Source: Spizellomyces punctatus DAOM BR117
Taxonomy: Eukaryota
DNA: 50,765 nucleotides
Assembly (NCBI GenBank): GCA_000182565.2
Contig: KQ257451.1
Strand: one strand, 5' to 3'
Shown here: positions 13,994-37,090 of the stretch, in pieces
Layout: every line of letters begins with the position of its first letter
Numbering within the stretch: the first letter of the stretch is position 1
The notes under the pieces: generated by a model
What the model was told of the DNA's origin: nothing
The model's database searches: none
Seen by the model: the letters and a program-made list of their open reading frames with translations, nothing else
Position numbers and translations under genes: made by a program

Positions 13994-16740
13994 ATGACTG
14001 GACGAGTCGAAGATGGGTCTGGATTGACGGAGAAGCAGGAGACCTTGAGGTAATACATGAAGACAGTCAACATGAGATGTACCCACTAACAACTAGAGTT
14101 GTGAAGTAGACCAGGGAGTACGACAAGCTTGCGGAATAACATAAAGGAGAGGCGGGTTTCTGCTCAGGTTCGTAACTTTTCGCAGACTTGCGTCTGCTCG
14201 TAATTCGCGAGACTCGGGCTGACGGATATCACGTATAGAAAGAAAACCTTGGAACAGAACCCGGTGTGTCAAAAATTCCCAGAGCTAAATCCGTCGTAAG
14301 TAGATGGATTCAACGGCGTAGTAGTAGACCAAAGCTACGTATCTCATTACCGCTTGTTTGTCTCCCCAGACTACCTCCAGTAAAGTGAAGCCCGTCCCTG
14401 ACTTTTCAAAATTGCACCGACAATGGGAATCCAAAATCTCGCAAGGAAAATCTCGCAAACCTACTAGCACAACGTTCGAACATAATTTACCTGCGACTGC
14501 CGCCCGTCCCTCTACCAGTTCCAAATCTCGTAAACCTACCAGCACCTTATCTGAACATAATCCATCTACGACTGCCACCCGTCCCAGTACCAGTCCAAAC
14601 GGTTCACCTTTGGATGATCCAACTAAGGTCCGAATTACTTCTTCGACCGCACCTCCACCTCCACCTCCATCATCAGTCCCTTCCACTGCCTCACGTACAT
14701 CAACGAACACCGGTCTTCTCAAAACCGGGCTTCAAGGGCCAGCCCGAACCGCTGTTAGAAAGCCCATGCGAAAGCCGCCGGTTAAAGAAGAATTCCACAA
14801 TGAGGCACTGTCCGATATCTTGAATAGCACAGACACAAGGGATCTGGACTCCCGGCATACATTGGCGCCGAGATTGGGAAATCCGAAGCGGCTAACATTA
14901 AATCCTGCGAAACGCGTAACACGGGTACCTGTTGAGGATGAGTTCAACAATGCCAATTTGGCGGATATCTTGGACAGCAATGATGCGGAGCAGCTTGATG
15001 CACGAACAGTGAGGCGAACGACGGGCGCATGGGGTTTGGGGAATCCGAGGCGGCTTACCGTTAGTCGAGGAACCGCCAGGCGGGCAACGGTTGCAGTGCG
15101 ACATCAGGTCAGTGCAATTATTTGAACCCTGGAATGTGCCCACGGCGTCGGATGCTTAAAGTATTGATATTCTAGGGAGCAGATGATCAGACGAAACGAG
15201 CGTCCATGTATGCTGGAGCCATCCGTGTTGCACGCAAGAATCCGACGCAGGTTTGTTTATCTCACGATTTGTGTAAATTGTGAATGCTGCCAAGCTTACT
15301 TTTACCTTCCAGACCTCTCACCTGAGCAATGAATCTCCATCCCCGTCGAAGGATGTCCTCTTACCCATCCCTGCACCAGAACCAACAGCAGATCCAGCGC
15401 CCCTCTCTTTACTTCAGAAAGGAATGGACGAGTACTTTGCTCGCCGTAACAACCCACCTAAAACTCCTTCCATGGTGAAATTTGTCACTGCGCCCACACC
15501 AAGGGAAAAACAGCAAAGCCTCGCTCGAAAAATGGGTATGATTGTTGCTGAGACGTTTGGAATGACTCCTCAGAGAACTGTTACTCAGGGCGTGCTGGAC
15601 ATTGCACGGACACCACGAGTTGCCAATCTGACCCTGAGACAGAAGTTTGAGGCAGAAAAGGGACAAGACGATACCGTGATTGAGCGCGGCATGAGGACGT
15701 TGGAAAAGTTGGTGGACGATGTCCAGAATCATGTTGGAGGCGGGTACGAAGATGAGCGAGTGGAGAATGGTAATGGTGTGCCAGTGGACCATGCAAGCTC
15801 TGTGCTCGGCAGTTTCTCTACTGCTTCCCACGGGTCTGAGCCATCGGTAGAAACATTGCAGAGTGCATCGAGTATATCAAATCATTTTCAAAACTCTCAC
15901 GTATCGGACACTGGAACATATATGCAGCAGGACAACCGTTTACCACCATTCAGCGCCATCGCCCTCCCCTTAATACCGCCAGTGCAGTCCCTGATGCTAC
16001 TTCCCGTCGGTCAGCCGACCGTTGTTCCCCTGGTGGGACCACCGATACGGCCACTGATTCCAAATCCGTTTGAGGTGCTGGATATGCAACCCCCTACTGT
16101 CGGCTTGGTCAGACAAACGCACGAGAATACTGAGCTGGAGTCAGTGCATGAACGAGACACGAGCAAAACGGAGGTCGGCAATGGCTTTCCAAATCCAGTC
16201 CACAATGCAGTTTGTGGTACCCAGGCGCCAGCTCCGAGTATAGCAAAGGAGTTAACCTTTAGTACCTTTACCTTAGTCCAACCTGAAAGATTGAGTGCAA
16301 CAGACGACTCCTGGCGTGACGTTGTGGGTATTACTTCTGCCCCTTTGGACAGTTCTGAAGGGCTAGTGGCCAATAGTACGAGCTATCATGACCAACAGGC
16401 ATCCACGGGGGAAATATCTTTGCCCGCACCAACCAATTTGGAGATTGCGTCCGTTTCCAATGTCCAGTCAACCCAAGCATGTAGTTCCACCCAAACGAGG
16501 GACGCTGCCATCCCTAACGCCCAACCTGAAAACTCACCACGTGCCAGCCCACCAAGTACCGCCGAAACATCGCGAAGGAGACGACGCAGTTCACTCCGAC
16601 GATCTTCAGTTCCTGATGTCGATCGCATTCGGGAGGAATTAAACCAGCTTGAGCTTGAGGAGGCTGAACTGCTGAGGCTTATGGAGGAATTGGAGGACGG
16701 TGAAGAGTTCTCCGATGATGAAGGGTGGGCGGAAGACTGA
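13994..16740 (+). CDS. Multi-exon disordered protein with KEN box, SxIP and PDFxxLH motifs (tastin/TROAP-like)
   Basis: Three short 5' exons splice in frame: MTGRVEDG...VSAQ|KENLGTEPGVSKIPRAKSV|TTSSKVKPVPDFSKLHRQWE. Internal repeat EFxNxxLxDIL..LGNPxRLT; acidic coiled-coil C-terminus. Confidence 0.65.
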
Positions 16741-18858: not shown

Positions 18859-21454
18859 TTATCCTCCTACACGCTGTTGCCCGCTCTGAGGGACTTGCGG
18901 ATGCTGTTGAGAACACTCGGTACTCTTTTCCTCCCTTTGGGTACTTTCCCCCCTGGGAGCATCCCCCGCAGGCCCAGTCCCGGTAGTGTATACTGATGAC
19001 CCTCCGGCTGGAAACAGCTGCACTCTCTTAGCCGATAGGATAGTGGGAGTTACGGTGGTAAGCTTTCCTCTAACCGATCCTTTATAGGAAGCATTTGGCA
19101 ATGCTTCGCCGGTTGCGGGATTTTGTTTCATTTGAGTTAAGGTCTCATTCGAAGTCGCAGCATCTGCCAATCGTTGTCTGTCGCCCGTGTTCTCAACAAG
19201 CGCTTTGGCTTGGGCGGCAACTGCATCTAACGAGGCTTGAGCTGCATTGAAATTTTGTGCTGATCGAGGTGAGGTTGGTTCCCTTTGCTTTGGTGGTGGA
19301 GATTTCAGAGGCACTCCCGATCCACCGACGAACCGATCTTGTAGCTCACCAACAATGGCGTTTGTGCCACCTGGTATAGTACTATACCGAGTTTTACCAT
19401 GCGCACTTGTGGGACTTGTCACTGCAGAAGCGCCCCCACGAGGGTTTTGGTTGGAACGAACGGGGGAGGCCGGAAGTGGCTCGGATGGAGGAGCTGGAGA
19501 TCTGGCCGTTTGCAAGGTCGGCGGCTTTGGTGGGGCGCGGTTAGGTGGTGGGATTGTAATGGAAAAAGCAGATTTTGGAGGCCTGGTAATGGGTGGAGGT
19601 TGAACCGGACTTTGATCCGTTTTCTGTTGCTGGGATGAAGTCTGCAAAGTGACTGGCTGCTTCTGGACAACGTTCACATCCGGTCGCACTTGACCAGAAG
19701 GTGACATCTTTGCCTCCGCTCTGGTCGAAGACTGTACTTGAGACGAAGGGGCAGCACTGAATCCCTGTTTGCTAGTCGATGCGGCTCCTTGTCTCGGTAT
19801 TTCAACTGTCAAGCTACCTATCGGTCCAGGTGATTCCTGTCTTCGTTTCCCTTGGGAAGCCAAAGATTGCGGAGGAACTTGCTGGTCAGTCTTAGCTGAG
19901 GTTTGAGATGGGTTTTGTTGGAAAGGGGATTGAGGAACCACCGCCTTCACTGTATTCATTGGGATGTCTTGCTGTAGCGGGGATTTTCCTCCACCATCGG
20001 CTCCTTCAGCCTTTTTGCCGGGCTCCTTGGCCGGAACGGCGGAGTGGATGTCCCCAACCTTCGGTACCGCAGTTGAGTCCGATTGTACCGGTTGTGGTGG
20101 ACGCATATCAACCGGCTTTGCCATTGCAGCTGCTCCTAACTTAGCCGGTCCACCAACCTTTGCACCAACGTCCTGAGCGGGTACAGGAGAACGAACATCC
20201 GCAGGCTTCATTACTGGTGGCGGTTCAGATCTTACGGGTTGTGGTAAACGGATATCGACCGCTTTGTTCATATTAGTGTCCCCTTTTTGACTCGGTGGAG
20301 GAACGGGTTTCGCATCCGCCCGCTTCTCCATATTATTCAGATTCCCAGACACGCTTCTGTCCATACCTTCCGGAAGATCGCCCGACACAGAGAATGCCGT
20401 GTCAAAGAGTGCCAGCATCTCTTCAGCAAAAGAGGACGCTGATTCGTTGCTAGTAGCAGACCCACCCGTTACCGGCCGGCTAACCGCTGGGTGGGGATCA
20501 CCTCCGACGACTGGTGGCACCAATGGAGTCATCGCAAAACCGCCACCCCTGCCTTTCTCAAGCTCGGTAGTTCCTGCAGACAAGATGGAAGATGGGGCAG
20601 GGACCAGGTCTCGAGACGAACGTCTAACTTGCGGTCCAATTGGAAATGACGGAGGGGTTGCCGTTGGTGAGCTTCCTACAGGTTGGATAGGAGGACGGAA
20701 TGGAGGAAGGTTTGTCACATGCTTTGCATAGAACTCGGCAGCCGCCTTTGCTTCAACTTCTTTGTCAAGCACGACGACATCCGCGTCCCAGGGATTACGA
20801 AGGATAATTTTACTAGGATCTGTTGGGTCCGTCTGTGGAGCTGTTAAAGCGGGTTCGTTGTTAACAGGCGAGCCCGGTGCAGGGACGTCCGAATGAGCTA
20901 TTGTGATAATGTTCGGTTTTGCAACCCGAACAGGTGCCGGGGACGCCTTTTCACTCTCGCTCTGAACAGGTTCCTCGTCATTCCAAGCCTCAAGGATGAT
21001 CGCAGTGGCAGCCCCGGCTTCCTCTCCGCTCTCCTCCTCCTCAACACCTTCTTCACTCTCCATAGACGGTTGGACTACAACGATATTTCGTTGGATATGC
21101 TCTTTCACAACCGGCGGAAGAATCTTATTAAAAGTACAATCAATTACTATCGCACGTTACAGACAAATGAAACGCCGTTCAGTCACATATACATACCACC
21201 TGGTGATGAATTAAGTTTTCTTCCCTGCTCTGCAAATGCTCATGAGCTCCATTCTTTGCGCTAGCAACTTCGGCACGGCCTTGGTCATGTCCTTGACGCG
21301 CAACGCCTCCTTGCTTGACAGACTTTCCACTTTCCAATCCGTGTTCTCGTCCAGGTGGGAGCGTTTTAGCAGCATTATCTGGTCTCGTTGGGGGTATTTT
21401 ATCTGGTGGTGGGGGTATCTCTGCTAGACCAGTACGGTGCGTCGATTGCTCCAT
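18859..21454 (-). CDS. Large Pro/Ser/Gln-rich disordered protein of unknown function; exons 21454..21197 and 21123..18859
   Basis: 749-codon ORF joined in frame to an upstream ATG exon by a GTATGT..AAG intron. Internal KP(V/A)D(I/V/M)R.P-type repeats. Confidence 0.7.
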
Positions 21455-27840: not shown

Positions 27841-29962
27841 ATGTCAATCTACAATTTCAAAAAGGTGCAAGTCGTACCGTCCGCGACGGACTTTGTCGAC
27901 ATTGTTCTTTCAAAGATTCAGCGCAAGACGCCTACGGTCGTCCACGCCCACTACCAAATCTCCAGGATTCGTCAATTCTATATGCGCAAGGTCAAGTTTG
28001 CGCAAGACTGCTTTGATGAAAAGTTGGAACATATTTTGGGTGATTTTCCAAAGTTGGATGTAAGTCCATTCTTTAGTTGAAGAGGCCCTTGAACTGTCTT
28101 GCTAATATGCAAAACTTAAGGAAATTCACCCATTCTACGCCGATTTGATGAACGTACTCTACGACCGTGACCATTACAAACTTGCTCTGGGTCAAATTAA
28201 CACGGCAAAGCATCTCATTGACAACGTGGCAAAAGACTATGCCCGCTTACTCAAGTTTGGTGACTCTCTCTACCGATGCAAACAGCTTAAAAAGGCGGCT
28301 CTCGGACGGATGGCCACCATCATGAAGAGACAAAAGGACAGTTTGGCATATTTGGAGCAGGTTCGACAGCATTTGGCCCGTTTGCCAAGCATCGATCCCA
28401 ACACCCGAACATTGCTGGTCTGTGGGTATCCAAATGTGGGGAAGAGTAGTTTTATGAACAAGCTGACGAGAGCGGATGTGGAGGTGCAACCCTACGCATT
28501 CACAACAAAGAGTTTGTTTGTTGGACACATGGACTATAAATACCTGAGATGGCAGGTTCGTAAGAGGCGACAATGCTGTGGCTTGCAGTACTATAGATAC
28601 TGAGCGTTGTTGTTCTTACTCTTTAGGTGATTGATACCCCTGGAATCCTCGACCACCCGTTGGAAGAGCGCAACACTATTGAAATGCAGTCCATTACGGC
28701 ACTTGCTCATCTTCGTGCATGTATCATGTTCTTCATAGACCTGTCCGAACAATGCGGCTACAGCATCGCTGAGCAAGTTAAACTTTTCCACGCCATCAAG
28801 CCTCTATTTGCCAATAAGCCGACTCTTCTCGTGATCAACAAGATCGATGTTATGAGGCCAGAGCAACTTGGACCCAATGAGAAGGCTTTGATTGACGAGA
28901 TTTTGAGCGATGATGAAGTGACGATGGTGCAAATGAGTACCTTCACCGACGAAGGAGTAATGGATGTGAAGACAACTGCCTGTGATAAGCTTCTAGCAGC
29001 GCGTGTTGAGATGAAGATGAAGGGGCAAAAGGTTGGCAATATTCTGAACAAACTCCACTTGTCTCAACCGGTGGCACGCGACGACCGAGAACGTCCTGCC
29101 GCTATTCCGGAAAGTGCAAAGATCCGCGTCAAGTATGATCCCAATGACCCTAACCGCCCGAAACTGGAGAAGGATATCGAAAGAGAACAGGGTGGTGCAG
29201 GTGTTTACAACGTTGATCTCAAGAAGGTGTATCGCCTGGAGAACGACGAATGGAAATATGACACTATCCCCGAGATCATGGATGGAAAGAACGTTGCAGA
29301 CTTTGTTGACCCTGAGATTGAAGCCAAGCTGGATGCCCTTGAGCGAGAAGAGGAGCGTCTTATCGCCGAAGGATTCTACGAGGAGGAAGAGGAGATGGTT
29401 GACGAAGAGGAGCAAGCCATTCGGGATGCGGCTTCTGAAATCAAGGCCAAAAAAGAGCTCATTGTTCAAGCACATCGTGCATCCAAAGGCAAGAATCGAC
29501 CCGTCATTCCCAAAAAGTCTCAAATGCGGACTGTGGACGATCTGGAAAAGCAACTGTCAACAATGGGAGTGGGCGCTGATGCTCTGCTCGATCGTGCACG
29601 AAGCAGAACTCGTAAAAGGGCGCGATCAGAGTCACGAGCGGAGGATATTGTGCGGGAACAGAGTATGGCTCCGAGCAGCAAGAAACAGGCTACGAGTGTC
29701 GTACGGGACCGCAGCGTAATGGGATTGCGGAATGCAAAGGTAAGAACAGAAAGGCAGATTCATACTCTCCTGCATGCGACAAGTAGTTAATCCTCTGTCC
29801 CTTTTACAGCAAAAGGCAGTTGCGGAAAGTATGAAGAAAAAGTCACAAACGCAGTCAAACTTGTACGCCAAGGCTGGAGAGTCCGACCGCGCCATCCAGG
29901 TCAAAAAGCCCAGACATCTGTTTGCTGGCAAGCGCAGTACTGGAAAGACAGATCGTCGTTAG
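27841..29962 (+). CDS. NOG1: Nucleolar GTP-binding protein 1 (60S biogenesis), 4 exons
   Basis: [63 protein letters not shown], and the C-terminal [16 protein letters not shown]. Confidence 0.97.
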
Positions 29963-30197
29963 GTATACGGCAAAAATGGTGGGAAGGGGAATGGGGATTT
30001 TTTTTTTCTTTTTGTATTTTATTTAATTATGAGCTGCCGTTTATTTGTCAATGTGTATAATACATACATTCGCGTTGAATGATATATTCTGCGCGTAGAC
30101 TTGCAAAATACCGCTGCCATACATGCTTGTGTTTTATATACAAGGGAGCCGCCTCGCTATAACGCTCCCCCTATTCATCGATCCTCTCCTGCTCGCC

Positions 30198-32440
30198 CTA
30201 CACCTTAGCATGTTCCGTCCGGCTCTTCACAATCTTTTTTCTGATATGCGGCCAGAAATGTCTCAATCCATATCTCTCCTGCAATGCAGGTAATTTCCAA
30301 TCCTGACCCGTTACCCGCTTTCTGCAAATGTGACTACCGCATTTACAATCAAAATCCGCTTCGTCATCCGCATCAACAGTGGCTAGTTGAGGGAGAAAAT
30401 GACCAGAATGTTACAACTAAAAATGACCATGGCATGGTGCTCAATGTGTTGAATTTGGGACTCACCGTAATCATATGTCAGTTCCTCTCCCTTCTTGATC
30501 GGTCGTCGGGCTACCATTACATCGTAAGTATCTTCATACCAGAGGTTGGGATCACAGTTGTGGTTTGTATAAAAGGATGCATCCACTTCATAAAGGTACG
30601 GAGCTACAAATATGCCTTTTGGACAAAAGTTGTTTTTCAGATGAACATTTTGCAAGTAGCAAAAAGCGAAACACCAAAAAAGACGTATAAACATACCTTC
30701 CTCCGCTTGCTCAGCCATATGTCCCAAGAACTCATCCATGTAGTCAGACTTTCCAAATACCTCGTCGTCTGTTCTCAACGACACTTCAATGGGGCCGCGA
30801 AAGATGATTTCCCCTTCATGAATATCTTCTTTGGCGTATTGGCCTGTGCCTTCTGTCTCACTTTTTTTAGCAGAGACTTTGGGATTGATGTAATATCCGT
30901 CCATGAATTGAAGGTCGGAAATCTCGGGATAGTAGGTCTTTGCGGGGATACCACCGAGTTGACGATTGTAAGATGTTGTTTTGACTGCGGCTAATTCGTC
31001 GTATAGGTAACCGAGGAGTTCTGGGGGTGAGACGTATGTGTTCCAATTTGCAGCGGTTGCCACGGCATATCCGCGTGCAGGAAACGTTGTCAGGATGATG
31101 TAGCCGCCTTGGTAGCTCACTGTTACTGTGAGAGATGGTGATGTGCCTGGAGGCATATGGGGATCAGGTTGAGTGGCTGGGAGGGGATAGGATGCGGTTG
31201 TGATTGAGAGATCTTTATCTTCTGGCGCATGGGCAAATTCGAGACCTTCACGGATTGAATTGATGAGGTGTTCCTCATTCGCGAGTGTCGATTGATTACA
31301 GCCAAAATATTCTCTCTGCCAGGAGCGCCCGGTCACTGTGTCCTCGGGTATATCTGTTGCTTTGATGTGAAGATACGGAGCGTAGTTGCGGCTTGTGGTG
31401 GTCTTTGGTTGCCGAGTACGGGTGATACGTTCAAGTTCGTCGCGAATCCATGTGGGAGGGTTGAACATGTGAATGTGGGATTGAGAATCGTAGTATTGCG
31501 GATCCCCTACTGCCCTCCGTTCCAACCAATCCTCGATATATGAAGGATGTAATTGTGTTGGAGAGGGAAGTGCATCAGAGTTGGTTGCATAATGATACAC
31601 CCACATGGCAGAGTTTAGCGGACGAAATTGTGCGGCGGTGTGAACGTGTTTGAACAAGGCGGAAAGAGACTCGTAAGGTCCCCAGTTGTCGGGTGCGTCA
31701 TAGCTGATTGAACCTCGAGAAACAGCCAAAATGCCTCCAGGAAGCAGACGACTTTGGGCGAGTTTATGGACATTAGGCGATGTCTCATGCACATCAAGGA
31801 TAATGACATCGAATCCTGCGTTACTATCACGTAGATAGTCTACGGCATTGCCGTGTGCTCGCTTGACGAGACCGAGCGGGTCGTCGTATGAATAGGGTAA
31901 ATGTGTTTTTATGAATTCCGCAAGCGGCTCGTCGATTCCGGCCCAAGTGATGCTCGCCAAGGTAAAGTATCTCAACGCTTCCCTCACCATTGTCCCCTCC
32001 TCGTTTCCCAGGACGAGCACCCGCCTCGGAAACGGATGCAATAATATGGCTGGATGAACCAAGGCCTCACTGTGCATGGCTTCGTCATCTGAACATGACC
32101 TCATCCAACCGTTTTGAACCAAGCATCGTCCTAATCGAGGATGATCCAGTATTATGTAGTCGCGGTTCCCTATCGAGTCCGCTGTGATAATCTTGCCCTG
32201 AGCACCATGGTCCCCCCACATCCGCTGTACATTCCAAGTCGGTTCATATGAAAACTCTAAGCGTCTTTCATCTCCTCGATGTGCAAAGATTGTGTTGGCA
32301 GCACGATCGTAAAATAACGTGCAGAGAATCGTCAGGCCTGCCGCTATTAGGAAGATGGCACGAGAAACGAAAATCATGACCTTGCGTCTTCCAAAAGCTC
32401 CAGTGGCTTTCCTGATAGCAGAAATTGGTGAGGAGAGCAT
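30198..32440 (-). CDS. Signal-anchored fusion: aminopropyltransferase-like + apparently dead AdoMetDC-like + SET/post-SET; exons 32440..30697, 30615..30466, 30382..30198
   Basis: N-terminal hydrophobic helix (aa ~21-44). SpeE-like EALVHPAILLHPFPRRVLVLG, FDVIILD, YYDSQSHIHMFNPP. SpeD/SpeH-like GRSWQREYFGC..LTTFPARGYA lacking ESH. SET GTGQYAKEDIHEGE, NHNCDPN, ELTYDY; spliced post-SET FDCKCGSHICRKRVTGQDWKLPALQERYG. Confidence 0.88.
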
Positions 32441-33387
32441 TTAAAGCGGCAAAGCGGAATAAACTGAAAAATGCAGGAGAACCACGTACTCCACGACATT
32501 GGGGATACTCAACCGTCGATGCGAGGGCTGGTGAGGAGGTGCCATAAAAGAAAAATACACACGAGTCCCGAGCTACCTCCTTGTCTTGCTTTGAGGACTT
32601 TTAACAAAGTCTTTTGGGAGCTCTTTCTCTTTGTTTTCCTATTCCCAAAACAACTCTATTGTTCCCAAGGGTGGCGAGTAGGCACAAACGAGCGCAAACA
32701 AAATCCCACTTGAAAACCATGTAATATATTCTCAATAGCTCCTTGCCGTCGCCACCCTGAAAGGCAATCTTGCGTTGAAATGTTGAGAACGTAGAATGCA
32801 GAGGTCTCCGCCTCCCCTCCATTTGATTACTTACTCTGAAACACTGTTTCAAAATAAAATTAAGAAACGGCATAATTATAAAAATTCTCTTTTTAATTTC
32901 AAACATTCGTGGAACGTTCGACCCCAATATTTCATACCTGTAGAGAATTCTAAATATGGTTCGACACCAAATTTCGTACCTAACAAGATTCTAAATGTGG
33001 AAAAGGATACTTGCGGAGCAGGAAGTGCAATGTTCGGCTTCATAAGTTTGGGGACGGCTTTTCATGTCGTTCAGAAAAGGGGGTGGATTTTTGGCTGGAC
33101 TGCAAAAGATTCGGCGGTGGAGGTCCAAAACAGAAACCCTTTGCTTTAACTGCTGGGTACCCGGTGGTTTGGGTTGATTTGCGCAAGTTATAAAGGAACC
33201 TAATTGACCTCCACCCTCCGAAAGGGGGACTTGCAGAAACTGTTGAAGAGACCAGATTTCCAAGATCTCTTCTTGTGTTCTTTTTTTTTTTGTGGTTGCC
33301 TGGTGTTCTCGTTTCTTTGAGAGAGAGAAAAAGGATAAACTCTTGCCAAAAGTCGTTTCTGTACTGCCATCGTTGTTCTTTTGCGTC
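32441..33387. promoter_or_regulatory. Putative bidirectional promoter between the two polyamine fusion genes
   Basis: ~950-bp head-to-head intergenic region with an AT-rich core near 32840-32900. No specific sites identified. Confidence 0.45.
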
Positions 33388-35071
33388 ATGCTCTTTGATG
33401 GAAAGTTTCCTCCTTCTCAACTACCTTCTCCACCACGACGACGCATGTCTCTGGGTTTCGGCGGATCGGCACGAGGTGTCATGAACCTTGTTATGGCCAT
33501 CAATGCCTGCCTTTGGGTTCTCCTTCTTGTGTATGTTTTATCCGATAAAGTCATGCACGGACGATCCGTTTCGTCTCAAGCTGGCTTCCATCCTCAAGCC
33601 GGTTCCGTTCCAGTACGTCTTACGGGCTCATGGTTTCCCCCTCGCCGCCCACCTGTGAGCTGCATTTCGCAAAGACCCGGCGAACACCTGCCGCTCGGCA
33701 AGCATTACCTTGTAGACATGCATAATGTCAACTCTGCCGCGCTGGAGCTGCTGGAAACCGACGCGGCTTTTTCAAAAATCGCAGGATATATCCACTCGGC
33801 GGGTATGACGCTGCTTGGAACATCCGCCCACCGGTTTGAATGCGGAGGAATGACGGCCGTATTCCTGTTATCCGAATCCCACGTATCCATTCACACATGG
33901 CCAGAGCATCGGTGAGTGATCAAAATGCATATGTATATATTTTTAAATATGTCACACAAAGCTCATATTTTTGTTCGTGAGCAGGTTCGTTGCTCTTGAT
34001 GTGTACACCTGCGGTTCCGGAGATCCGCAGAGGATTGTACAGGAATTCGAAAACCTCCTTCAACCTCGGCGGTCAGTCACAACAAAAGTAAACCGTGGAG
34101 CGGATCATCACATCTCTACTACAAGTGGCGAGCCAATAAACCCGAAACAGAGCCGACCACTGCGGACTCGACCAGCTCTCCTTGACATGGGCCGTCAAGT
34201 TCAGAAAGAGGCTCCGTCAAAAACGTTAGCCCCTACACAAACAAAGGATCACAATGCCACGATTTTCCAACAGAAAGAGGTTAACGATCACTTGGTTGCG
34301 GATATCTGTGTGAATGGCGATTCAAGCGACGATGATTGCTATCTCCTCCGGGAAGCAGTAGTACTAGCTGATGAGCGTAGCCCATACCAACGCGTTGAAA
34401 TCGTCGATTCACAGTCCTTTGGCCGCTGTATGCTCCTAGACCGTGTTGTCCAGTTTTGCGAAAGTGACAATGAAGTTTACACTCGTCAAATTACTGAACG
34501 AGTATTCAAACCATACTTCAAAGGTGCGGCCGCCCGGTTGAAGAACAAGCATCAGGCACCAGACCTTGTCGTGCAACTCGTTGGTGGAGGAGACGGCTGG
34601 GTATCATCACACATTCTGGACCGGTACGGTGACAGGGTGAAGCACATCACGGCGGTGGACATTGATCCTCTGGTAACAGAACTCACAAAAGAGCATTTTG
34701 AGCCAGTTGGCACATCAGATGCCTTCACCGATAGCCGTGTCACATGGATTTACGATGACGCTGGCAAATGGCTAGCTACTTCCGGCCAAAGCGACTCTGT
34801 AGATATCTTTATTATCGACTGCACCGACCACACGGCGGAGGCAGCAAAGATTCTGTATACCCAAGAGTTTTACAACAACGTTTACAGAATGCTAAAGCGC
34901 GGAGGTCGGGTGGTACAGCAGATGAACACGGACGACCCATCATATACTGAATTTTTCCGACAAGCCGAATCGGTATGGCTGGCGGCGGGTCTTAAAGGTT
35001 TGCAAAAGTGGAGTGAATATGTTCCTTCATTTGGGGGAAAATCGACATTTTGGATGGCACAAAAGTATTAG
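33388..35071 (+). CDS. Signal-anchored fusion: bacterial-type S-adenosylmethionine decarboxylase + aminopropyltransferase; join(33388..33911,33985..35071)
   Basis: Hydrophobic helix LVMAINACLWVLLLVYVLS. AdoMetDC GKHYLVDM..GMTAVFLLSESHVSIHTWPEHR|FVALDVYTCG with intact E-S cleavage site (33874-33879). SpeE-like SPYQRVEIVDSQSFGRCMLLD, GGGDG, VDID, IIDCTD, LYTQEFY, YVPSFGG. The start could instead be 33445. Confidence 0.92.
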
Positions 35072-37090
35072 TTTAGCAAAAAAAAATGTCTGTATATCGT
35101 TCTATTATAGCGTCAAGTCGACGGGGGCGAGAATTTGGAGAATGCCCACGTTTTCCTGTAGATGAAGCCGATGGCAATTTTATAATATAATTACACTTTG
35201 TAAATAGCATAAAAAAAGGAAGAATGTCCCACGTTAGCCTTCACAACACCACACTATCATGGGTTACGGACAAGATGCCTGAAGCCTAGAAGTCGTCCAG
35301 CGTAATCTGTCTGAATTCAACCTTTCCAATAATGTGTCGCAACTGGGATGTTCCCAACTGCCCCTGTCTCGTGATAAGTGGGGTCGTTTCCTCTCTTGCG
35401 GACACATAAGAATCAAAATGCCTACAAGATTGTAGTATTAACTTTCAAAGATTGCCACGCTGAACCCTCTGGCCTGCATCTTGGTCCGGGCCTCTAATGA
35501 GTCCAACCATAGTGTCCATAAGAAGATACAACCGTGAAAATACGACCAATGATGAAAAGCAGCCTCCGTAAATAAAATCATTAAAGGCCATCTTCCGAGG
35601 AGGAGAACGCCAAACTTTTATTTACGCCCATACAGTGGCTACTCTCGACGTCTCTATCGCCCTCCACTCTCACTCTGGAATTAGGTGCCGTTAAAAATCA
35701 TGTCCATATCTCAATATTTCTTGTTTCAACTCCCGTCGTCTTTTTCGGCGGGTAAGCTGGCGCTCTACCGTCCTCTCTCGCCTACAATTATCACTACACC
35801 CTGGGTACCTCCTCCACGGCCTGTCTTCCTTGAAACAGGCAGGAACGAGTGCGTACATGAACTTGTCTCGACTGTGGCGACATTGGATGTGGATCCAGTT
35901 TGCGAGTGCTCGGTCGTCCTTGTCAAATGATCCGGTTGTAGTTTCGTCTTTGCTTAGACGTGACTGGCAGTCATCTTTGCATCCATCAAGCACCACAATG
36001 TCGTGAATTGGCTGATCCATGACACTTGGCAAGCTATTTGAATGTTTGTCCTCGGCGGATTGCATGCCGTCGTTGCCTGCGTTCATAGCATGGTTGACTT
36101 GAACCTCTTGAGGCATACCATCTAACAAGGTTTGGACAACAGACTCCAAGGACTGACCTTTATATCCCACTTAGAGGTTGAGGCTGAGCCCAGGCGCTGG
36201 AGATGGAAAGCTGCCCCGCATCCAGGACCCATTACGTAATCCGGCGTGCTCAGGCCAAAGTAGGCACACATGTTCGTTGACATCTACGCCACGGATAGCT
36301 TGTATTGCCTACGCATTCAATGGCGCATTGTCGACTAGGTTAAAGTTAGTGCATAGGTACTCGACGATGCAGGAGTCGGCTCCGACGATAAATAAATGTG
36401 ATCAGGCATAATTTGTGTCTAGAATGGGGTATACATATCCGTTGTAGGTAATGCAACGGTTCTTTAAATTACTGATGGGCAGACGCAGGGTTAATTAGAG
36501 AAGCATAATTCTATTGAGCATCATTTACTTTTTCGCTATCAGTGTATGTCCTTGTTCTCTTTTCCACCCACTATACTTGTCTTTCTCCCAATATCTCTTC
36601 CATGTTTGGCTTCTTGCGTGATACAGGACTTTTTAGTGCTGCGACCACGGACGATCAAGTCAACACTGGATCCTGGAATTCCATCAAATTCAATAACATA
36701 AATGACTCTATTCATGTGTTGATGTTTATGCGTAAAGTCCTGATTCAAAGCTCCGAAGTAACTGTGGAGGCGGAGTTTATTGATAATTAGCATAAGGATC
36801 ATTTGGATGGGTTAGCGTTAACTGTCGTGCTCGTGAACCTTGATAAAAATAGCCCTGTCCAGTCGTGTTTATCCTCAGCATGTTGCAACTGTCAAAAATA
36901 GCACACAGTGTTTACTGATATATCTTAAAGTTATGCTCTGAAATCTCCTTTCTCTTCCGACATCCTGTTGACCTGCTCAGGATACCAGGCATGCCACATA
37001 ATGAAGTACGACACTTTTTTTTCATTGGTAGTAATTATCTTATAGAGTCTTACCATCTTCGTATCAAATAGGACATCAAAGGTCTGGAGA

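Follow-up and report, generated by a model that had tools for sequence, protein, structure and literature searches.

We analyzed a stretch of 50,765 nucleotides (nt) from contig KQ257451.1 of the fungus Spizellomyces punctatus DAOM BR117 (Chytridiomycota; assembly GCA_000182565.2), hereafter called the window and located at 2114339-2165103 of contig C2 of the genome as numbered here, and focused our attention on its gene SPPG_01685 (gene A; annotated protein P0002 of 701 amino acids (aa)). A segment of this protein is a class 1b S-adenosylmethionine (SAM) decarboxylase (AdoMetDC) half-sandwich, incapable of self-cleavage or decarboxylation. From the N-terminus onwards, the protein consists of a membrane anchor, an aminopropyltransferase (APT)-like domain, the dead AdoMetDC domain and a SET domain, and the gene starts divergently from gene B (P0192, 536 aa), which codes for an anchor, an intact class 1b AdoMetDC and an intact APT, in that order. 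Of these findings, the conserved fungal A-B pair is of greater value than the dead domain taken by itself, which adds one more case to a known theme. Positions are collected in Table 1.

A dead class 1b AdoMetDC domain within gene A

An earlier, sequence-only reading of the window had proposed the cryptic domain from a peptide aligned by eye. This peptide is in frame on the minus strand, within the long second exon (32411-30697), with its first Gly at 31330 and its last Gly at 30955; an intron or a spurious frame as the source of the segment was rejected. In gene A, scans with the single sequence miss the domain: the segment alone matched the Pfam family AdoMet_dc (PF02675) with E=0.049 and 14.4 bits, below the cut-off of 25; the Pfam scan of the whole gene A open reading frame (ORF) and protein detected no AdoMetDC domain; and single-sequence hhalign against a profile of B-type domains returned a probability of only 0.1. 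It is through family profiles and a fold model alone that the domain becomes visible there. To define the family, a search of 1.84 billion representatives gave 16 proteins at E up to 1e-30, and the alignment comprised 20 sequences (P0002-P0004, P0043-P0051, P0054-P0058, P0060, P0184 and a paralogue on contig C13 of the same genome); two sequences that end ahead of the cleavage-site motif (P0052 and P0053) were left out, as was P0059, which is an AdoMetDC-APT fusion of the ordinary kind. The profile of these 20 domains aligned to that of 24 active B-type domains, taken out of 45 strong matches, with a probability of 94.4 (E=8.6e-8, score 46.6), while the best of 100 column-shuffle controls scored 23.6; in the whole-family profile comparison of A and B, the APT match alone was reported. 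Moreover, six other A-family proteins pass the AdoMet_dc cut-off, namely P0045 (E=2e-8), P0050, P0054, P0055, P0057 and the contig C13 paralogue.

An AlphaFold2 model of the dead domain, built with A-family sequences only, reached a predicted local distance difference test score (pLDDT) of 89.4 and shows the six-stranded sheet with two helices on one face that defines the class 1b fold, plus a low-complexity insertion of approximately 20 residues between strands 2 and 3. Foldseek, which the sequence-only reading had suggested as a check, returned the bacterial AdoMetDCs of Thermotoga maritima and Aquifex as its top five matches (E 6e-9 to 1e-7). In VIA-align, the model superposed on the T. maritima enzyme (1vr7) with Z 17.7 and a root-mean-square deviation of 2.2 Å over 117/120 residues; the next six rows were the Aquifex AdoMetDC (Z 16.3), human spermine synthase (10.2) and class 2 enzymes (8.9-7.9), ahead of the first unrelated row at Z 7.5. 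The assignment of the segment to the AdoMetDC class 1b fold is secure.

The loss of catalytic residues was also confirmed. In T. maritima numbering (B numbering is T. maritima + 101), Glu62-Ser63 is replaced by Gly-Gly, His68 by Thr and Cys83 by Trp; gene A thus lacks all three features of an active class 1b enzyme (the Glu-Ser site, Cys83 and His68), and the domain is dead in 20/20 family members. Ser63 occurs in 0/20 A-family rows vs 24/24 B rows, and Glu62 is kept in a single A row. His68 is found in six and Glu72 in one of the 20 A rows (Thr and Ala in gene A), with His68 kept in 2/12 rows of the B-linked subfamily described below; Phe49 is found in none, at a place where the insertion makes the alignment unreliable. 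All 24 B rows retain Phe49, Glu62, Ser63, His68, Trp70, Glu72 and Cys83. The possibility of a still active decarboxylase whose cleavage site has shifted was considered and rejected, as Glu-Ser lies nearby in only one of the 20 rows, P0054, where it is one residue out of register and Cys83 is absent. P0054 and P0265 (Powellomyces hirtus) are the sole A-family members with Glu-Ser near the site; they also have His68, Trp70 and Glu72, miss Cys83, and are the least decayed copies seen.

The dead domain has conserved residues of its own, namely Arg385 (16/20), Glu386 (15/20), His413 (15/20), Asn476 (15/20) and Glu483 (16/20). These are absent from active enzymes, and the domain is therefore under selection rather than in simple decay. 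In addition, position 9 is acidic in 20/20 rows, and Pro71 as well as an aromatic side chain at Trp70 are each kept in 19/20.

Table 1. Position of gene A, gene B and their parts within the window
Feature	Position	Strand	Remarks
Gene A	30198..32545	minus	exons 32545-32490, 32411-30697, 30615-30466, 30382-30198
Hydrophobic N-terminal helix of A	32324..32380	minus	residues 30-48; Kyte-Doolittle 19-mer mean 2.33 at residue 30
APT-like domain of A	31412..32188	minus	PF01564, E=5e-10; Foldseek thermospermine/spermidine synthases, E 4e-20
Dead class 1b AdoMetDC-like domain of A	~30944..31339	minus	residues ~377-508 of P0002
Gly-Gly replacing Glu62-Ser63 self-cleavage site	31103..31108	minus	turn between two strands of the model
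Thr460 and Ala464 replacing His68 and Glu72	31076..31090	minus	residues that the partner half would give to the opposite active site
Trp replacing catalytic Cys83	31043..31045	minus	Cys in 0/20 A rows, aromatic in 18/20
SET domain of A	30201..30883	minus	PF00856, E=2e-11; spans two introns
Interval between divergent start codons of A and B	32546..33387	none	842 nt, from exon coordinates
Gene B	33388..35071	plus	exons 33388-33911, 33985-35071
Glu-Ser self-cleavage site of B	33874..33879	plus	read directly

Architecture of gene A and its linkage to gene B

Gene A contains three GT-AG introns of 78, 81 and 83 nt, and its raw ORF of 685 aa (32440-30383) reads through the 81-nt intron. The exon structure of both genes rests on the annotated proteins and GT-AG ends, as the one RNA run is 3'-biased, hardly covers the dead domain and shows splice joints for neither gene. 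In this run, sense reads reach a depth of 88 at the 3' end of A (30088-30281) and a depth of 17 at that of B (34938-35131), and both genes are transcribed in that library. The 842-nt interval between them probably represents a common promoter region. The N-terminal helix of A, which covers residues 25-62 in the full-length model, is probably a signal anchor; the anchor of B is likewise N-terminal and similarly positioned. The full-length model of A (pLDDT 78.9, predicted template modelling score (pTM) 0.71 over 701 residues, approximately 70 of them poorly ordered) suggests, at the level of a soft prediction, a fixed packing of the three domains.

The APT-like domain of gene A keeps the catalytic Asp, while the Gln, the Tyr, the ribose-binding acid and the adenine-binding Asp are replaced, so that the donor-binding residues expected of an active aminopropyltransferase (Gln, Tyr and acids) are not present as a set. 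Among the family rows that cover each position, Gln is kept in 1/14, Tyr in 0/16, the Gly-loop acid in 5/16, the ribose acid in 7/15, the adenine Asp in 4/15 and the catalytic Asp in 15/17, vs 12-13/13 in B and 33-41/41 in canonical synthases at the same positions. The roles of Asp173 and Tyr79 are described in PMC13619349.

Regarding the SET domain, gene A has intact NHxCxPN and ELxxDY motifs followed by a post-SET cysteine cluster, as expected of this family. All three motifs are found in 11/20 A-family rows, and most other rows end before the domain. In a metagenome scan, the 80 best of 478 loci were SET-only genes, none of them with an APT or an A-type dead domain. Many stand-alone SET proteins on metagenome contigs resemble the SET domain of A, with 26-48% identity and a common C-terminal tail after the post-SET cysteines; BurB, a small-molecule methyltransferase, is matched as well and ranks below histone enzymes. 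One metagenome locus (L057 1546-1842, minus strand) holds a frame resembling SpeD (E 8e-7 against the B profile), with a SET gene approximately 700 nt away on the other strand. P0085, P0099 and P0133 join an intact spermidine-synthase domain directly to a SET domain, both orders being represented, and lack an AdoMetDC domain. A prokaryotic genome scan with gene A, able to detect close relatives only, gave no relative among 15 pattern matches.

The sequence-only reading had further linked A to B, and this link was borne out by comparison of genomes. A of the B-linked type and B were both found in seven named genomes; they are neighbours in 4/7 and lie on a common contig in 6/7. Accessions are consecutive in S. 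punctatus (KND04255/KND04256), Fimicolochytrium (KAI8817865/KAI8817864), Catenaria (ORZ39173/ORZ39174) and Sorochytrium (KAL7750899/KAL7750898), contigs of matching length carry the genes in S. palustris (accessions 24 apart) and Cladochytrium (P0048/P0206), and the genes lie on different short contigs in a Lobulomycetales assembly. Cladochytrium also has a further B and a partial A on other contigs. Outside S. punctatus, where alone the orientation was seen, adjacency is taken from accessions. As the linked genera span Chytridiomycota and Blastocladiomycota, this recurrent neighbourhood makes a functional partnership of A and B likely. Moreover, the pair is not of the housekeeping type, since the genome has a separate canonical class 2 AdoMetDC (contig C26) and a canonical spermidine synthase (contig C4).

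The tree of the A family separates 12 rows, which include all B-linked copies, from eight others (support 99/97), the named members of the latter being Spizellomyces, Fimicolochytrium, Powellomyces, Geranomyces, Gaertneriomyces and Thoreauomyces. No B from Powellomyces, Geranomyces, Gaertneriomyces or Thoreauomyces was among the 71 matches listed by a word-limited search, a result that is no more than suggestive. S. punctatus itself has one B gene and two A genes, the second being the intron-split gene on contig C13 (~441000-443350; L002 238-2723), with APT-like, dead AdoMetDC and SET domains and Glu-Gly-Gly-Ser at the cleavage site; no B-like neighbour was found beside it within the 20 kb read. 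Anchored AdoMetDC-APT fusions of the B type (P0207-P0236) were also found in a basidiomycete, Phlegmacium glaucopus, and in soil metagenomes, where many such proteins show 33-44% identity to B; an A partner was neither seen with these fusions nor specifically sought.

Proposed role of the dead domain

We consider it moderately probable that the dead domain acts as a scaffold within A, a secretory-pathway methyltransferase that would work with B to produce N-methylated aminopropyl chains. The domain would fix the mutual arrangement of the polyamine-binding APT-like domain and the SET domain, and might also allow A to self-associate, like the dead AdoMetDC domain of animal spermine synthase. B would form a homodimer by itself and, within the secretory pathway, produce decarboxylated SAM and attach aminopropyl units; A would bind the amine product via its APT-like domain and N-methylate it with SAM. 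As has been proposed for diatoms, the output would be N-methylated aminopropyl chains, either released as such or attached to an acceptor, which could be a protein or the cell wall. A membrane complex containing both A and B is possible, but in it the dead domain of A would not complete the active site of B.

This proposal differs from that of the sequence-only reading, in which the dead domain docks on the AdoMetDC of B as a prozyme-like activator; that claim was not upheld. Bacterial AdoMetDC halves dimerise via their sheet faces (PMC5201418). The eukaryotic enzyme is described as a fusion of two class 1b units, the C-terminal one being dead (PMC10407285), and each half supplies active-site residues (PMC1282579): in the human enzyme, Ser229 and His243 are reported to be required for processing, with Ser229 analogous to T. 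maritima Ser55 (PMC3975893), and Phe223 and Glu247 to bind SAM (PMC3686867). All four residues lie in the dead half, and, judging by spacing, human His243 and Glu247 would correspond to T. maritima His68 and Glu72. As the dead eukaryotic half keeps the residues that it contributes, a dead partner that completes the site of B should keep His68 and Glu72, and both are lost in gene A. In addition, we assigned 14 strand positions to the dimer face and 13 to the helix face, following the hydrophobic alternation of B. In 12 B rows the presumed dimer face is more conserved than the helix face (entropy difference -0.50, permutation P=0.015), whereas the trend is reversed in 11 B-linked A rows (+0.37, P=0.06) and eight other A rows are flat. 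Positions 108, 158 and 160, Leu or Val in the face of B, are variable and polar in the B-linked A subfamily. A variable A dimer face argues against activation and weakens a face-to-face docking of A and B; the two proteins may still bind via some surface.

Several points weigh against the scaffold proposal. The unconserved dimer face weakens A-A dimers through it as much as A-B dimers, and tight linkage in two phyla would also be expected for the subunits of an obligate heteromer. Gene A keeps acidic residues at three APT positions, and its APT-like domain may have weak residual transferase activity. Moreover, the ESM Atlas model of gene A has a pTM of only 0.47, and the diatom link presented below comes from a language-model cluster and not from a sequence alignment. 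Finally, the product, the SET substrate, the luminal location and the quaternary structure are all features that we infer.

A possible but rather doubtful alternative is a docking heterodimer without activation, in which the dead domain and the AdoMetDC of B would form a four-layer sandwich that tethers the methyltransferase, with one half-site silent or damped. The adjacency and contig-sharing of A and B, their similarly placed anchors, the fact that the fold superposes best on proteins that dimerise in this way, and the retained aromatic, proline and acid (Trp70, Pro71 and position 9) would all fit such an arrangement, but the B-linked A proteins are variable at the face in question, and polar where B has Leu or Val. 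The second A subfamily has the same dead domain, and yet in S. punctatus it does not stand beside a B gene, nor did four of its genera contribute a B to the 71 matches listed, which is no more than suggestive.

We find it improbable that the dead domain is a ligand-binding or sensor domain whose pocket binds polyamine, SAM or decarboxylated SAM, and which regulates or feeds SET. The polar residues conserved specifically in the family could serve such a pocket, but the SAM-binding Glu72 is lost in 19/20 rows, the position of Cys83 is filled by an aromatic residue in 18/20, and such a domain accompanies SET in none of 80 SET-bearing metagenome loci, the best of 478. Even less probable is an activator that completes or allosterically switches on the AdoMetDC of B. 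The trypanosomatid prozyme offers a precedent for a live/dead AdoMetDC pair (PMC5201418), bacterial proteins in which a live SpeD domain is fused to a degraded one are described as active (PMC10407285), and the linkage of A and B is conserved. Nevertheless, His68 and Glu72 are missing from gene A and infrequent in its family, and B keeps the residues of both halves in 24/24 rows, as expected of a self-sufficient homodimer. Moreover, the prozyme is a class 2 paralogue working via a dimerisation domain that bacterial-type enzymes do not have (PMC5201418). Very improbable is a neutral relic, i.e., a decaying remnant of an ancestral fusion with no present role. Pairwise identity within the domain is low, with means of 0.26 and 0.31 for the two subfamilies of A vs 0.60 in B, as would fit such a relic, but the fold is intact (pLDDT 89) and is found in 20/20 members from two phyla with conserved positions of its own.

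Known polyamine systems and neighbouring observations

Michael is said to have reported in 2011 that diatom fusions include catalytically dead AdoMetDC variants. The nearest ESM Atlas cluster to A (score 0.94, 187 shared features) has APT in 100%, AdoMetDC in 99% and SET in 30%, with Bacillariophyta as its commonest group, and one diatom cluster lies near B (score 0.91); this cluster tie of A to diatoms may serve as a lead, distinct from an alignment. Diatom fusions of AdoMetDC, APT and a histone N-methyltransferase (SET) domain are proposed for long-chain polyamine synthesis (Michael 2011, FEBS Lett 585:2627, as cited in PMC3820600, PMC6356823, PMC12029483 and PMC12803844); they were described as uncharacterised in 2018 (PMC6356823), and one diatom is reported to have 32 APT fusions (PMC12803844). 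Like them, gene A has APT, AdoMetDC-fold and SET domains in one chain, along with an N-terminal targeting segment, and live and dead versions coexist within one genome; the likeness is one of domain types, whose order in gene A is APT-dead AdoMetDC-SET. Unlike the diatom fusions, the fungal set comprises only one B and two A copies, with A and B as a conserved adjacent pair. The zoosporic fungi that host A and B are not known to have a silica wall.

Comparison with enzymes of known structure places the dead domain closer to class 1b proteins than to the prozyme. It has the same protomer fold as class 1b AdoMetDC (SpeD/SpeH; T. maritima 1TLU/1VR7, Aquifex 2III), but it lacks Glu-Ser, Cys83 and His68/Glu72, carries the 20-residue insertion and is found within a multidomain protein. 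In animal spermine synthase, a dead class 1b domain is described as retained for the sake of dimerisation (PMC12803844; PMC11203672), and A, like human spermine synthase (SMS, PDB 3C6K), has such a domain fused to APT; in SMS, however, the dead domain is N-terminal, the APT is active, and there is neither SET nor anchor, whereas the dead domain of A lies mid-chain and its APT is degenerate. With the trypanosomatid prozyme (PDB 5TVF/5TVM; PMC5201418), gene A shares a dead AdoMetDC-fold protein that coexists with an active one. However, the prozyme is a separate protein, a full class 2 paralogue, and activates by relieving autoinhibition via its dimerisation domain. The dead domain of A, with approximately 130 residues, is of class 1b, has half the size and forms part of a fusion; it matches class 1b far better than class 2, with Z only 7.9 for the prozyme.

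Overall, the dead-domain protein A and its conserved place next to B point to a diatom-like polyamine system in chytrid and blastoclad fungi. The A-B pair would represent a minimal system, with one live AdoMetDC-APT and one dead-domain SET protein, as against the large diatom families, and it would predict unusual methylated polyamines in fungi. More tentatively, A and B might constitute an ancient two-gene secretory machine in zoosporic fungi of two phyla, producing N-methylated long-chain polyamines or aminopropylated and methylated secreted proteins, with B and the double pseudoenzyme-SET protein A in one membrane complex and the dead domains of A docked on B. No literature report of the fungal A and B genes was found, accessions included, in a search of main texts that covered few of the subscription journals; the main text of PMC12803844 does not mention Spizellomyces, and its supplement could list fungal APT fusions.

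As for the remaining part of the window, gene A and a convergent GTPase gene (28145-29960), NOG1-like by its motifs, have overlapping 3' RNA ends (29894-30281), and an intron of the latter at 29738-29807 is supported by six reads. Further away, two ORFs of 749 aa (18859-21108, minus strand) and 486 aa (15280-16740, plus strand) have no Pfam match at E up to 1.
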